A DNA stretch of 39,185 bases from UHGV virus genome UHGV-1491546. One strand, written 5' to 3'. The position numbers and the translations under genes are program-made. This stretch comes from a virus. The notes under the pieces are model-generated. The model saw nothing but the letters and a program-made list of their open reading frames with translations. It searched no databases and was not told the DNA's origin. This document shows positions 4,892 to 39,185 of the stretch, in pieces. Each line of letters opens with the position of its first letter. Position 1 is the first letter of the stretch.

Positions 4892-5080
4892 TTATTCGTC
4901 ATGCATTTCAGGTAATTCTTCGTATTCGACGCCCCATACGAGTTTACACCAAGTGACTCGCTCATATCTTTTACAAAAATCAGACCACATAACTTGTGTT
5001 CCATCATGGTTTGTTATTACTTCTGTAATATCACCAACACTAACAAAACTGGTATTAGAAGCAGTTATTTTTACTTTCAT
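4892..5080 (-). CDS. hypothetical early-left protein
   Basis: 62-aa ORF; ATG 5078-5080 overlaps the upstream stop (TAATG). Confidence 0.5.
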   Translation of the reverse strand: MKVKITASNTSFVSVGDITEVITNHDGTQVMWSDFCKRYERVTWCKLVWGVEYEELPEMHDE

Positions 5081-5367
5081 TACTTATCCCCAAGAGCTTT
5101 TCTGATTGCTGCAAGACCTTTATTAACAGCTTCATACCATTCTGGATATGTTGTCGTTGTTCTATTTTTGGATTGCTTAAGTAATAACTGAAGTGCTTCG
5201 AGAAGGTCAGGTGCTGCCGCTATCAGTAGCGCATCCTCCCTTTCATTTCTTGTTGCTGCTTCAATGTATGTGTCACCAATCGTCACACCATGGAACGTAG
5301 TCATCATCTCGTTGACGTTTCTAACCGTGTACTTCCATTTACCAGGCGTACCCTTAAACTCTTTCAT
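5080..5367 (-). CDS. hypothetical early-left protein
   Basis: ATG 5365-5367 preceded by AGGTG; track ORF begins at a GTG at 5373; 95 aa. Confidence 0.5.
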   Translation of the reverse strand: MKEFKGTPGKWKYTVRNVNEMMTTFHGVTIGDTYIEAATRNEREDALLIAAAPDLLEALQLLLKQSKNRTTTTYPEWYEAVNKGLAAIRKALGDK

Positions 5368-5375
5368 ATTCACCT

Positions 5376-5415
5376 CTGTTGTTTATGCCCAAAATAAAGG
5401 CCGACTATGCGGCCT
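5376..5415. repeat. direct repeat copy 1 (terminator-like)
   Basis: CTGTTGTTTATGCCCAAAATAAAGGCCGACTATGCGGCCT; near-identical copy at 5919-5956; contains hairpin AGGCCG-ACTATG-CGGCCT. Confidence 0.7.
5390..5415 (-). terminator. rho-independent terminator after gene 5414-5884
   Basis: Minus strand: AGGCCG-CATAGT-CGGCCT hairpin followed by TTTATTTT; the gene stop codon lies in the stem. Confidence 0.5.
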
Positions 5416-5884
5416 AGTAGAATACCCAATTTTCTGTTTCTTGGTTGTGTCCAAAGTTATATTCAATATCTGGTGTTGATGTATCAATATTCTTCATCCC
5501 ATCAACAAGAGTTGATACAACAGCCAAATCTTGTTTGATTCTCATCAAATGGTATTTCTTTCGGCGCAATAAACTTTCAATGGCAAGTTTCTTAGTCGGG
5601 AATGCAAAAGATCTTTCTGCATTTTTTGCTACTTTCTTAATTGCATATCTATTTCTCTTTTGTTTCCATTCCTGTAACCACTGATTTGGTGCTGGTTTAA
5701 AATTAACAATCCAATGCGCAGGAACCAACCATGCATAATGCTCTGTCTGATGAAAAGCTATATATTGAAGTGCGAATATTTTGATTCCATCTTCTTCAAC
5801 TGTCGCTTGGAATCTCCAGAAAACAGGCATTCCATCATGTTCAGTTTCTGATTCAGGAAAAGGTACGCTCCATGATTTTGTCAT
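5414..5884 (-). CDS. hypothetical protein bracketed by direct repeats
   Basis: 156-aa ORF; ATG 5882-5884 with GAGGTG SD; flanked on both sides by the 38-40 bp repeat. Confidence 0.6.
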   Translation of the reverse strand: MTKSWSVPFPESETEHDGMPVFWRFQATVEEDGIKIFALQYIAFHQTEHYAWLVPAHWIVNFKPAPNQWLQEWKQKRNRYAIKKVAKNAERSFAFPTKKLAIESLLRRKKYHLMRIKQDLAVVSTLVDGMKNIDTSTPDIEYNFGHNQETENWVFY

Positions 5885-5918
5885 ATCTCACCTCAAATAA
5901 TTCAGTGCAGTGTTTATT

Positions 5919-5956
5919 CTGTTGTTTATGCCAAAAGAAGGCCGACTATGCGGCCT
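5919..5956. repeat. direct repeat copy 2 (terminator-like)
   Basis: CTGTTGTTTATGCCAAAAGAAGGCCGACTATGCGGCCT; differs from copy 1 by one substitution and two deleted bases; same hairpin. Confidence 0.7.
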
Positions 5957-6569
5957 CGGAAGGAAGTCCAATCATCTTATTCAAATCTTCTACCCGTAAA
6001 GCAGGAAGTGCTGTACTTGCTTTATCTGCTTCTTTTGGTAGCAATTCTTTGCTTTCAGGCCAAACCTCAATAAGTCGCTTAACTGTTGTGACTGAGTTCA
6101 AAGCAGCCCATACATTTGATTCGATATCCTTTTTCTTGGCTTCAAGTTTTTGTTGCAATGCGCAGATTTCATCAAACCTTTTTGTTATTTCGTGTTCTGC
6201 GCTAAACATGCATTTATCTTTGTTCGGAGTAGGGAGCAATATATCTTCGCCGTTGCCGTCTTCCCCATATGAAAGCCATCCAACCCTTCTGCCAGATACA
6301 GTCAGATAAATTGAAGTAGAACGAACATCGTATGAGTAAAATGAACATCCCATCTTTCCAAGTTCTTCACTTATAGCTACCAACTTGGATGATAACTGAT
6401 CCACTTCCTCAGTTTTCTTTTTACCGCCAAACGCAATAACTCTGGCGTCAAGTGCAAGCTGGTTCTTTAACTTTGTTACTTCTTCAAGTTCAGTGAAAAC
6501 CCCAGACTTAATTAAAGCGTTACGAGCGATTTCCTCTTTCATTCTCGTAGTTAAGCGGATTGATGACAT
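5946..6569 (-). CDS. hypothetical early-left protein
   Basis: ATG 6567-6569 with GAGGA SD (track ORF extends to 6638); 207 aa; stop codon lies in the loop of repeat copy 2. Confidence 0.6.
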   Translation of the reverse strand: MSSIRLTTRMKEEIARNALIKSGVFTELEEVTKLKNQLALDARVIAFGGKKKTEEVDQLSSKLVAISEELGKMGCSFYSYDVRSTSIYLTVSGRRVGWLSYGEDGNGEDILLPTPNKDKCMFSAEHEITKRFDEICALQQKLEAKKKDIESNVWAALNSVTTVKRLIEVWPESKELLPKEADKASTALPALRVEDLNKMIGLPSEAA

Positions 6570-15029: not shown

Positions 15030-15214
15030 ACGCCACAATTCAAACGATACCAGAGCTTCTTATCCAGACACGAGGCAATCAGACCGAAGTGGCGAGGATG
15101 CTTTCCTGCGCAAGAGGAACAGTGCTCAAGTACAACCGAGACAGCAAAGGCGAGCGTCACGTAATAGTTAACGGCGTCCTGATGGTCAAACAGGGCAAGA
15201 GGGGTAGACCATGA
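15026..15214 (+). CDS. ninH: NinH
   Basis: 62 aa; GNQTEVARMLSCARGTVLKY...IVNGVLMV resembles recalled lambda NinH. Confidence 0.75.
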   Translation: MNATIQTIPELLIQTRGNQTEVARMLSCARGTVLKYNRDSKGERHVIVNGVLMVKQGKRGRP

Positions 15215-15834
15215 GACTGGAAAGTGTAGCTAAATTTCATTCGCCAAAAAGCCCGATGATGAGCGACTCACCACGGGCTACGGCTTCTGACTCTCTTTCC
15301 GGTACTGATGTGATGGCTGCTATGGGGATGGCGCAATCACAAGCCGGATTCGGAATGGCTGCATTCTGTGGTAAGCACGAACTCAGCCAGAACGACAAAC
15401 AAAAGGCTATCAACTATCTGATGCAATTTGCACACAAGGTATCGGGGAAATACCGTGGTGTGGCAAAGCTCGAAGGAAATACTAAGGCAAAGGTACTGCA
15501 AGTGCTCGCAACATTCGCTTATGCGGATTATTGCCGTAGTGCCGCGACGCCGGGCGCAAGATGCAGAGATTGCCACGGTACAGGCCGTGCGGTTGATATA
15601 GCAAAAACAGAGCAGTGGGGGAGAGTTGTTGAGAAAGAATGCGGAAGATGCAAAGGCGTCGGTTATTCAAGAATGCCAGCAAGCGCTGCATATCGCGCTG
15701 TGACGATGCTAGTACCAAACCTTACCCAACCCACCTGGTCACGCACTGTTAAGCCGCTGTATGACGCTCTGGTGGTGCAATGCCACAAAGAAGAGTCAAT
15801 CGCAGACAACATTTTGAACGCGGTCACACGTTAG
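15211..15834 (+). CDS. Q: Q-type late antiterminator (P22 gene 23-like)
   Basis: 207 aa, last nin-operon gene directly upstream of a pR-prime-like promoter; Cys pairs CRDCHGTGR...CGRCKG as in Q zinc finger. Confidence 0.8.
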   Translation: MRLESVAKFHSPKSPMMSDSPRATASDSLSGTDVMAAMGMAQSQAGFGMAAFCGKHELSQNDKQKAINYLMQFAHKVSGKYRGVAKLEGNTKAKVLQVLATFAYADYCRSAATPGARCRDCHGTGRAVDIAKTEQWGRVVEKECGRCKGVGYSRMPASAAYRAVTMLVPNLTQPTWSRTVKPLYDALVVQCHKEESIADNILNAVTR

Positions 15835-15876: not shown

Positions 15877-15905
15877 TTGACTTTTTGAATAAAGTTGGGT
15901 AAATT
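15877..15905 (+). promoter_or_regulatory. late promoter pR-prime
   Basis: -35 TTGACT (15877-15882), 17-bp spacer, -10 TAAATT (15900-15905); same hexamers as recalled for lambda pR-prime; 43 bp after Q stop. Confidence 0.65.
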
Positions 15906-15935
15906 TGACTCAACGATGGGTTGCTGCCTTCGTTC

Positions 15936-15966
15936 AAGCCCTGATATTAACGTCTCGGGGCTTTTT
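15936..15966 (+). terminator. candidate tR-prime hairpin in the late leader
   Basis: AAGCCC ... GGGCTT stem with large loop followed by TTTTT; weak, position uncertain. Confidence 0.3.
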
Positions 15967-16202
15967 GCGTTTTAAGCACAACGGAAAGCCTTATTTCATG
16001 CCCTGCTTAGTCTCGACACTAAGTATTTGGGAGAGTTGGCTTCCCCATGTGGTTAAAACAGGGTTTGTAATGGGTACTCAGCCAAAGAACCTTCCTGTAG
16101 GGCGCTGAGCTAAGTCTCACGTAGTAGCCACCACATCCTAACCTGCTACCTCAGGAAATCGGTCGAAAGACGCCTGATAAACGTAACTGGTCCCATTCAG
16201 CT

Positions 16203-16559
16203 ATGGCTAGACCGGCCAGTCGAAAAGCAGTATCGTCACTGCCTGCCATAGCGAACATAGACGAGCAACTAGACGAGGTTGTTATGGAAAAAATCTCTGA
16301 AAGAGAACTGCATTTTCTCAATCGAATTCTTCAATTTAAGCAGGAGAGAATTGCTGATTCTGACGTACAGGATGATGAGATTCTCATGGTTGACTCATTG
16401 GTCCGTCATGGATATCTTGCTGTTGGCTTTTTCGACCGTGATAATAACGGCGGATATCATAGCTTAATGCAATACTACTCTCTTACCGAACTTGGCGTTG
16501 CAGCTCATAAAGATGAATGGAAATGGAGAGGGAATCCAAATTCAAATAAAGGTCGCTAA
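16203..16559 (+). CDS. hypothetical moron protein between Q and holin
   Basis: Track ORF 118 aa; better-supported start at ATG 16284 (GAGG SD, 92 aa); stop codon sits in the loop of its own terminator. Confidence 0.55.
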   Translation: MARPASRKAVSSLPAIANIDEQLDEVVMEKISERELHFLNRILQFKQERIADSDVQDDEILMVDSLVRHGYLAVGFFDRDNNGGYHSLMQYYSLTELGVAAHKDEWKWRGNPNSNKGR

Positions 16560-16573
16560 GGCGGCCTTTTTAT
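16551..16573 (+). terminator. rho-independent terminator of the Q-S moron
   Basis: GGTCGC-TAAG-GCGGCC hairpin (one G-U pair) followed by TTTTTATT. Confidence 0.6.
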
Positions 16574-16862
16574 TGCACGACATTTCTGAAAGCGCATTCC
16601 ACCAAAAACCAGACAGACAAAACCCTCACCTTATCCGCTGTGGCTACGGTGCGGCGTGCTTTGCATAAAAGAAAACCAGCTCAATGGCTGGCTTCGTGAA
16701 AGCGGGTGGCAAGAGGTTGCGCTAACAACCTGATGCCGTTTTGCCCGTGCATATCGGTCACGAACAAATCTGATTACTAAACACAGTATCCTGGATTTGT
16801 TCTATCAGTAATCGACCTTATTCCTAATTAAATAGAGCAAATCCCCTTATTGGGGGTAAGAC

Positions 16863-17186
16863 ATGAAGATGCCAGAAAAACATGACCTGTTAGCCGCCAT
16901 TCTCGCGGCAAAGGAACAAGGCATCGGGGCAATCCTTGCGTTTGCAATGGCGTACCTTCGCGGCAGATATAATGGCGGTGCGTTTACAAAAACAGTAATC
17001 GACGCAACGATGTGCGCCATTATCGCCTGGTTCATTCGTGACCTTCTCGACTTCGCCGGACTAAGTAGCAATCTCGCTTATATAACGAGCGTGTTCATCG
17101 GCTACATCGGTACTGACTCGATTGGTTCGCTTATCAAACGCTTCGCTGCTAAAAAAGCCGGAGTAGAAGATGGTGGAAATCAATAA
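16863..17186 (+). CDS. S: holin, lambda S family
   Basis: 107 aa; [41 protein letters not shown]... essentially the recalled lambda S sequence, including the dual-start Met1-Lys2-Met3. Confidence 0.9.
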
Positions 17187-18391: not shown

Positions 18392-18616
18392 TCATTACAA
18401 AGCCCATCAATGGGTGAGCTTGATAATGAAACCGGAATTTATTCTGGGCCACCAGTTACGGCAGTACAGCGAAACAACCCAAGCCAGTAAGTGGGGAAAT
18501 AACACTGGCAGCCACTGAAAGATGAACCTACTGCCTTATGGCAAAAAAGATTCTTTGTGGTGGCGGACTGATGGAAAGACATCCTAATCAAGCAACCACT
18601 CCACAGGGTCATAATT

Positions 18617-18997
18617 ATGAACGACCAGCAAATCGAAAAAGAAATCGTTGAGAAAGGCAAAACGGCACCGCGAATCACCCCGCAGCACATCGAAGACGTG
18701 ATTAAAAGCGAGCATTACTTTACTGCTTATGATGGACGTAATGGTGCCATTTCCAGCAACGAATATTGTGGCAGAGAAAAACCAGAAGAAGGCGATCGTG
18801 ATTTATCACCATTGAAGTTGCTCACTTTCTGCGTACTGGTGCTGAAGAATGGCTTCACCGTCACCGGAGAGAGTGCCTGTGCAAGCCCGGAAAACTTTGA
18901 TGCAGAAATTGGTCGGAAGATTGCCAGACAGAATGCTGTAAACAAAATCTGGATGCTCGAAGGTTACTTGCTGAAGCAGAAGCTAAGCGAACAGTAG
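18617..18997 (+). CDS. hypothetical protein upstream of terminase
   Basis: 126-aa ORF; weak SD; no recognisable family. Confidence 0.5.
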   Translation: MNDQQIEKEIVEKGKTAPRITPQHIEDVIKSEHYFTAYDGRNGAISSNEYCGREKPEEGDRDLSPLKLLTFCVLVLKNGFTVTGESACASPENFDAEIGRKIARQNAVNKIWMLEGYLLKQKLSEQ

Positions 18998-39130: not shown

Positions 39131-39185
39131 TGGTGTCCCCTGCAGGAATCGAACCTGCAATTAGCCCTTAGGAGGGGCTCGTTAT
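39131..39185 (-). tRNA. argW: tRNA-Arg(CCU) (argW-like), 3-prime 55 nt only; attachment core region
   Basis: Reverse complement ATAACGAGCCCCTCCTAAGGGCTAATTGCAGGTTCGATTCCTGCAGGGGACACCA shows anticodon loop CU-CCU-AA, T-arm GGTTCGATTCC and 3-prime CCA; 5-prime part beyond window end. Confidence 0.75.

Follow-up and report, generated by a model that had tools for sequence, protein, structure and literature searches.

A putative accessory-gene cassette with an int-alpA-type RNA leader in the late region of the phage genome UHGV-1491546

The late region of UHGV-1491546

The virus genome UHGV-1491546 was analyzed as a single window of 39,185 nucleotides. Around the insertion considered here, its late region is lambda-like, with Q, pR'/qut, S, R, and Rz, and the interval from Q to the holin gene S comprises the following features.

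15211-15834: Q, the late-gene activator (Pfam Antiterm, E = 1.5e-57)
15877-15905, + strand: pR' and qut region (context, outside the insertion)
15936-15974, + strand: tR', the terminator of the short pR' transcript (context)
15980-16574, + strand: 595-bp insertion relative to late leaders of the HK542, HK022, and HK97 type
16053-16155, + strand: segment B, a conserved non-coding block of ~100 nt, outside the cassette frame
16575-16862, + strand: ordinary lambda-type leader upstream of S, 288 bp (context)
16863-17186: holin S (Phage_holin_3_1), with R and then Rz downstream

A promoter scan identified pR' as TTGACT-17-TAAATT, a site that aligns with the annotated lambda-like PR'/qut of HK542 and lies where the preliminary description of this DNA had put it. 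Folding revealed tR' as a hairpin (AGCCCUGA...UCGGGGCU) followed by a U-rich tail; alignment indicates that it is kept in HK542 and in strain HL15, and the insertion begins 6 nt 3' of it. The distance from the Q stop codon to the S start codon is 1028 bp, as compared to ~433 bp in HK542, HK022, and HK97, in agreement with the earlier remark that about 1 kb rather than a few hundred bp separates pR' from the holin gene. In these three phages and ~170 others, the match to the Q-S interval is confined to its two ends (43%, in 2 pieces). Since local alignments with HK542 stop at 15979 and restart at 16575, the insertion measures 595 bp; its boundaries were taken from pairwise local alignment, MAFFT having misplaced the left end of HK542. 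The ~290 bp before the holin gene are free of ORFs, as previously noted, but they are co-linear with HK542 and represent ordinary lambda-type sequence.

The insertion was detected in 4 of 5426 complete E. coli genomes at 99% identity and in 2 more at 91%, and only microhomology (GCAC, present at both junctions) marks its ends. One copy that is 99% identical to the insertion, in E. coli OkiPb01684 (L002), is flanked by two IS3-family insertions (106-1319 and 4968-6181) and is accompanied by a truncated Rz, indicating that this prophage is decaying. In a Yersinia proxima prophage (L004, 6320-7007), the cassette is separated from the holin gene by two minus-strand genes, one of which matches the AcrIF11 ADP-ribosyltransferase family (PF26151), such that an anti-CRISPR-like gene also occupies that Q-S slot.

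Segment B recurs, highly conserved, in the interval between a Q-like gene and the holin gene of Klebsiella phage RCIP0114 and of an E. coli 2017-03-3CC prophage. Both copies are unannotated and precede a terminator; in HL15, other sequence is found in its place. Its fold energy was no better than that of shuffled sequences, hence no structural claim is made, and it may be part of another late-leader type. Elsewhere in the window, a sar antisense RNA (RF00262, 92.8 bits) at 34773-34840 (- strand) points to a P22-type immI/ant region. A partial tRNA (RF00005, 5' end cut) lies at the window edge (39134-39185, - strand), as could be expected if the prophage attachment site were within a tRNA gene; no complete tRNA was detected by ARAGORN.

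The cargo gene, its terminator, and its predicted product

Two features of the insertion are considered first.

16284-16559, + strand: cargo gene encoding a 91-aa, winged-helix-like protein of a very rare family (91 aa plus stop; GAGG at 16275-16278)
16548-16574, + strand: frame terminator (AAAGGUCGC-UAAG-GCGGCCUUU, then UUAUU)

The start at ATG 16284 and its GAGG Shine-Dalgarno (SD) sequence had been recognized from the sequence and are borne out here, although the product comprises 91 aa plus stop rather than the 92 aa given at the time. Among eight copies of the gene, pairwise dN/dS is 0.05-0.20 with dS of up to ~1.5, indicating that the ORF at 16284-16559 is a real gene under purifying selection. 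It was also correctly observed that the ORF ends inside a clean terminator hairpin: the stem has 9 bp (16548-16556/16561-69), the TAA stop codon (16557-59) sits in the loop, a T-run follows, and the fold energy is -13.4 kcal/mol (z = -3.3 versus shuffles). Both this terminator and tR' were missed by a simple terminator scan and identified by folding.

Homologs of the 91-aa protein form 9 clusters among 5.8 billion proteins, and a profile search returned 6 hits among 1.84 billion representatives. The family thus amounts to fewer than 15 clusters worldwide, with named members from Escherichia, Yersinia, Sodalis, and Serratia, and two scans of species-representative genomes, one based on the protein and one on the 27-nt linker described below, gave no match. 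Some copies of the gene are pseudogenes, as indicated by frameshifted or truncated versions of the protein in Serratia marcescens (P0008) and E. coli (P0009), the latter of which reads on past the terminator into the leader upstream of S.

The product had been described as not recognizable. That holds at the level of sequence, since searches with the 91-aa and 118-aa proteins against Pfam, PHROGs, PADLOC, and PDB sequences yielded nothing significant, but not at the level of predicted structure. An AlphaFold model (pLDDT 78, pTM 0.66) is composed of H1, a short strand, H2, H3, a two-strand wing, and a C-terminal helix, and the fold is predicted to be that of a small winged-helix DNA-binding domain. 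A fold search of BFVD with this model returned generic wHTH matches only. The MarR, PadR, and HxlR families and STIV F93 share the winged-helix fold with the predicted protein; identity to these is 12-20%, however, and at 91 aa the protein is far shorter than MarR. No Pfam profile match to MarR, PadR, or Phage_AlpA was detected, and a weak Pfam match to Epsilon_antitox (E = 0.14) was disregarded, there being no other Pfam hit at E <= 1. Judging from the predicted fold, the product would be a small, probably dimeric, DNA-binding regulator.

An int-alpA-type RNA directly precedes the gene

The sequence 5' of the cargo gene was found to contain a structured RNA.

16200-16252, + strand: int-alpA-type three-way junction (P1 16200-07/16245-52; P2 16210-12/16219-21; J2/3 GAAAA 16222-26; P3 16227-30/16239-42)

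A covariance-model search placed Rfam family RF02996 (int-alpA) at 16200-16266, with a score of 43.7 bits (E = 1.7e-7) that exceeds the gathering score of 35.8; the preliminary description had seen no RNA and missed this leader. The three-way junction has a minimum free energy (MFE) of -20 kcal/mol (z = -2.55), and the motif lies directly 5' of the ORF in every related locus examined. The gathering score was reached in nine loci (L002-L004, L006-L008, and L011-L013; 43.7-48.2 bits), which comprise all copies that are at least 89% identical and a 70% identical Serratia copy, and three diverged copies fall below it (L014 at 35.5 bits; L005 and L015 at 31.5 bits). The motif and ORF are also found together outside of the Q-S slot, specifically after Rz in L007 and L008 and before the terminase in Sodalis (L005).

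Compensatory changes among relatives are evident in P1, P2, and P3. Variants of P1 include GCUAUGGC/GCCAUAGC, GGCAGA/UCUGCC, and AGUGGC/GCCACU, with 8-16 compensatory sequences per P1 pair, and hairpin P2 shows 1-nt indels among copies. RNAalifold recovered P1-P3 with heavy covariation (double changes in 9 of 15 pairs); a further hairpin, P4 (see below), was not recovered, owing to misalignment of the downstream part by MAFFT. Upon inspection, interpretations of the junction as a hammerhead-like ribozyme and of the linker as an attC-like site were both rejected, as the respective core motifs do not match.

The int-alpA motif is reported in Weinberg et al. (2017; PMC5737381) as a product of comparative genomics. 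The element described here resembles RF02996 in its three-way junction with conserved CUAG, CGAAAAGC, and GCCUG and in its co-varying stems, and it is a member of this known RNA family that lies within a moron-like insertion. The family takes its name from an int/alpA setting, whereas the present copy is located between Q and S and precedes a gene that is not alpA. The intA-alpA region of CP4-57 in strain K-12, tried as a canonical example, did not contain the motif. No functional study of int-alpA/RF02996 was found in the literature searched, in which one paper lists the family among Rfam hits, without functional data.

The junction bears directly on the length of the cargo protein. A 118-aa form initiated at ATG 16203, offered earlier as an alternative, has in its favor that the frame is open from this in-frame ATG and that PGAP annotated the longer form in strain HL15 and in Serratia; PGAP calls for the gene are not consistent between strains (91 aa or 118 aa). 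Nevertheless, the 27 extra codons coincide with the structured RNA, and this 5' stretch scores as RF02996 and varies by indels and compensatory stem changes. Moreover, the upstream frame is broken in the copies of four relatives (no in-frame upstream start in L004, L007, and L008; frame shifted in L005), and no SD precedes 16203, as compared to GAGG before 16284. The probability that the 118-aa protein is the real product is considered to be negligible, and the longer frame is artefactual, the RNA element being open in this frame by chance.

The P3 loop is complementary to the SD region and to a possible decoy

The structured leader measures 84 nt and runs up to the start codon. Beyond the junction stems it contains the following elements.

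16231-16238, + strand: P3 loop L3 (UAUCGUCA, core UCGUC at 16233-37), complementary to R1 and R2
16260-16264, + strand: R1, the upstream GACGA copy, complementary to L3
16264-16283, + strand: P4 hairpin (AGCAACU/GGUUGUU; arms 16264-70/16277-83), seen in the MFE fold
16272-16276, + strand: R2 (GACGA), within the P4 loop AGACGA

The SD (GAGG, 16275-78) straddles the P4 loop and 3' arm, and the 3' arm abuts the ATG. Pairing between L3 and either R site involves 5 bp in the UHGV-1491546 copy. The L3 core is invariant in 41 leader variants that differ in the stem and the first loop bases, and L3 and both of its targets are invariant in the enterobacterial subfamily, such that covariation is visible across the wider family only. 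It should be noted that the enterobacterial set was retrieved with a 15-mer from the linker, and part of the linker is therefore invariant by ascertainment; copies retrieved by protein, however, independently show the same invariance, the 27 nt from R1 to the ATG being almost unchanged despite a dS of 0.5-1.5 in the adjoining gene.

Covariation was consequently evaluated across the wider family. GC-rich canonical members comprised 16 viral and 120 metagenomic loci among the matches listed which, together with the enterobacterial set, gave 159 distinct leaders and 62 distinct P3 loops (likewise among the matches listed). In almost all 159 leaders, the P3 loop is complementary to two downstream sites. 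The sum of duplex energies with each loop in its own leader was -505.7, versus a permutation mean of -391.4 (sd 13.8), a value that was reached by 0 of 20,000 permutations, and at least two sites were present for 54 of the 62 loop types versus 21 +/- 3.3 in permutations. Loops that do not resemble an anti-SD behave alike; these include UCGUC with GACGA (two sites), GUGCACCG with GGUGCA (three sites), CGCUUC with GAAGCG and GAAGC, and CUCGA with UCGAGA and CGAGA. The 3' end of the second site, R2, is at a median distance of 7 nt from the start codon, and 50 of 55 such sites include an SD-like tetramer. The first site is located ~13 nt farther upstream, its complementarity equaling or exceeding that of the second in 48 of 55 cases. 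When P4 was defined as a compact hairpin around the second site with its 3' arm reaching the start codon, the complete architecture (R1-P4[R2]-start) was recovered for 45 of 62 loop types, as compared to 17.1 with foreign loops and 2.4 in shuffled leaders; a looser definition of P4 was not discriminating (53/62 real versus 45.5/62 shuffled). A total of 37 distinct P4 stems occur among the loop types.

The covariation of L3 with the SD region points to translational control in cis rather than the sRNA role given by Rfam, and the leader probably influences initiation of translation in cis, at the gene that follows it. The P3 loop (UCGUC) would pair either with the decoy R1 or with R2, which overlaps the SD (GACGA-GG), and the leader would thereby set or switch translation initiation. 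Since L3 co-varies with both R1 and R2, the alternative pairings would involve the SD, a feature of riboswitch-type leaders.

Rfam classifies int-alpA as "Gene; sRNA", and in some instances a promoter directly precedes P1, as would be expected of a trans-acting sRNA that merely neighbors an unrelated ORF. Yet no terminator separates the junction from the ORF, the spacing to the start codon does not vary, the P4 loop holds the SD, L3 co-varies with the SD region across 62 loop types, and a gene follows in 120 canonical instances. A role in trans is thus judged to be improbable. Relative to the Rfam entry, the leader described here appears to be cis-acting, with a P3 loop that pairs with the SD and a decoy and with an added hairpin that presents the SD.

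Leaders that sequester the SD in a pseudoknot include the SAM-II and preQ1-II riboswitch platforms and the PK-repZ translational pseudoknot, in which a hairpin loop is complementary to the SD region. The int-alpA leader is similar to these in having a hairpin loop complementary to the SD region just upstream of the start codon. It differs in that the target is duplicated (the R1 decoy and the R2 SD site) and in that the SD is held in the loop of a separate hairpin.

A frame of leader and terminator shared by unrelated genes

The preliminary description also overlooked that the leader and terminator are common to many different cargo genes. A scan of IMG/VR with the linker 15-mer, filtered for the RNA core, identified at least 75 such frames in at least 62 distinct contexts. 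These enclose at least 18 unrelated cargo families of 53-129 aa, as defined by BLAST at 1e-5 among the matches listed, and only two of ten cargo representatives scanned could be assigned to a family, namely DUF551 and phrog_17136. In 14 of these 18 families, the cargo is followed by the terminator (GGUCGCUNAGGCGGCC-U(5-6)). A given 80-82-nt leader sequence was seen in front of as many as 3 cargo families and a single terminator variant behind as many as 5, and the cargo family of UHGV-1491546 occurs behind five leader variants; these combinations, like the count of terminators, are those among the matches listed. Further, the terminator is invariant in six diverged copies of the UHGV-1491546 cassette, in which similarity begins at P1 and ends after the terminator T-run.

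Two additional arrangements were observed. The phage contig L011 carries two cassettes, the second of which combines the same 27-nt linker and SD with an unrelated 101-aa ORF and the same terminator. In cargo family F6 (L024, L113, and L116), an 89-aa cargo (phrog_17136) is followed by a DUF551-like ORF without a second leader, and the frame terminator is located ~217 nt after the first stop codon, indicating that some cassettes carry two genes. Behind the canonical motifs, 120 ORFs fell into 52 clusters with a median length of 232 aa (among the matches listed); the nine largest of these clusters gave no Pfam match in seven cases, a methyltransferase in one, and a sub-threshold NIT match in one. 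The cargo families that were scanned gave no metabolic clue. Of 5426 E. coli genomes, 57 contain the leader, as do 7 of the 50,697 phage genomes on deposit, and in none of these is it annotated as RNA.

Among the matches listed, most cassettes are positioned in the Rz-to-terminase slot, between Rz and a DUF2560 gene, and a minority between Q and S. A 40-nt flank (AAAAAAGATTCTTTGTGGTGGCGGACTGATGGAAAGACATC) that precedes ~25 promoter-bearing cassettes in the post-Rz slot of other phages is also present in UHGV-1491546, at 18545. Past 18584 it runs into an unframed 126-aa ORF (18617-18997) with no -10 and no int-alpA leader, and 18545-18997 looks like the same post-Rz slot, filled differently.

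The nearest published concept for framed and shuffled ORFans is the PeSL cassettes of T4-type phages, in which promoter and stem-loop terminator motifs flank variable ORFans and modular shuffling has been proposed (Arbiol et al., 2010, PMC2839356; PMC4122927). The cassettes described here similarly place conserved regulatory motifs around interchangeable ORFs, but they reside in temperate lambdoid and P22-like phages and their frame includes an 84-nt structured translational leader. As judged from the combinatorial pattern of frames and cargo, PeSL-type exchange may also apply to int-alpA cassettes, with cargo exchanged by recombination at the frame edges.

This pattern could also mean that the frame is mainly a DNA-level recombination device, akin to T4 PeSLs or integron attC sites, the RNA structure being incidental or serving only, as a 5' stem and a 3' hairpin, to stabilize the mRNA. 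Identical frames around different cargo, the presence of the frame in several slots, and junctions with only microhomology fit such a device, as does the predicted start of transcription at P1, or slightly inside it, in promoter-bearing copies. On the other hand, CUAG, CGAAAAGC, and GCCUG are conserved in very distant GC-rich members with unrelated flanks, the covariation of L3 with the SD has no DNA-level rationale, and the cassettes have no linked recombinase. This explanation is considered to be the less likely one.

Transcription of the cassette

In lambda, polymerase starting at pR' passes tR' only when modified by Q, which also lets it ignore terminators farther downstream. In UHGV-1491546, a consensus scan identified no promoter-like site at 15906-16283, and no hexamer with A2/T6 is present in the 60 nt before P1, so the earlier suggestion of promoter prediction upstream of 16203 led to no site between pR' and the ORF. 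Relatives in the Q-S slot likewise have no -10 hexamer, and several of them directly abut a tR'-type terminator. The absence of a promoter-like site and the position downstream of tR' suggest transcription mainly by Q-modified polymerase, late in infection. Going by these consensus scans, the cassette would be transcribed from pR' only when Q permits read-through of tR' and of its own terminator, and the cargo gene would be the first late gene rather than one expressed in the lysogen.

Sister cassettes elsewhere differ in this respect. Among 154 distinct upstream contexts, 30 have a -10-like hexamer (at least 5/6 matches to TATAAT) whose end is 8-13 nt upstream of CUAG, which corresponds to 5.0 hexamers per position versus 0.14 elsewhere (~35-fold enrichment), and some sister cassettes have a full -35, for example L141 with TTGACA-17-TATAGT. 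With the -10 just 5' of P1, transcription of these cassettes is expected to start at P1 or slightly inside it.

Accessory genes are known to occupy the Q-S slot, and the morons of lambdoid phages, a concept developed for HK97 and HK022, are units of promoter, gene, and terminator inserted between conserved genes. The earlier claim of an accessory insertion in this slot is upheld, in that one real gene with its own terminator is present and HK542-type relatives are without it. Absence of the ORF from close relatives had been named beforehand as grounds for refuting the claim, and such absence was found; yet it is precisely what an accessory cassette should show and does not overturn a moron-like reading. 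The insertion is like a moron in that it adds a gene and a terminator, co-oriented with the late operon, and is missing from close relatives. It is unlike one in that it has no recognizable promoter and in that its structured leader and terminator are conserved and shared by many unrelated cargo genes.

A classical moron would have its own constitutive promoter, would be expressed in the lysogen, where it would serve in lysogenic conversion, immunity, or defence, and would use its terminator to shield the lysis genes from read-through. The presence of a terminator, the TATAAT-like -10 before P1 in many sister cassettes (including L007, which carries the same cargo family), and the use of the Q-S slot for accessory genes, with an AcrIF11-like gene adjoining the Yersinia copy, are compatible with this scenario. 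The absence of any promoter-like site between 15906 and 16283 and of an A2/T6 hexamer before P1, the position behind an intact tR', and the lack of a PADLOC hit weigh against it, and a classical moron is regarded as unlikely. The lysogenic-conversion or defence role once proposed, and an Stx-like toxin role, likewise gained no support, given the missing promoter-like site, the location behind tR', and the absence of toxin or defence domains in Pfam, PADLOC, and PHROGs searches.

Taken together, comparative sequence evidence suggests that 16200-16574 probably constitutes a self-contained accessory-gene cassette (leader, 91-aa gene, and terminator) within a 595-bp insertion after tR', that its frame is shared by at least 18 unrelated ORFs in enterobacterial lambdoid and P22-like phages, that the leader would act in cis, and that transcription would be late. 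A more far-reaching proposal, put forward here as speculation, is that the int-alpA leader is a true sensor, riboswitch-like or protein-responsive, that flips the P3 loop between decoy and SD in response to a common cellular or phage-derived signal. It might then gate translation of accessory genes in prophages, satellites, and other mobile elements and, with its partner terminator, form a plug-and-play system by which temperate enterobacterial phages trade ORFan genes.

Significance

The cis-regulatory extension of int-alpA and the shared frame of leader and terminator appear not to have been described previously. One practical consequence is the correction of gene calls, given that the leader currently lies under CDS calls for a "hypothetical protein" or "DUF551", including the 118-aa calls of the cargo gene, or is unannotated. 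An orphan Rfam motif would also gain a concrete job, namely control of translation in cis via pairing of a loop with the SD or a decoy. For the biology of temperate enterobacterial phages, the findings suggest that many of their small accessory genes travel in one shared expression frame, which offers a handle to find such genes systematically and to study their regulation and exchange, and which could serve as a natural portable expression module.
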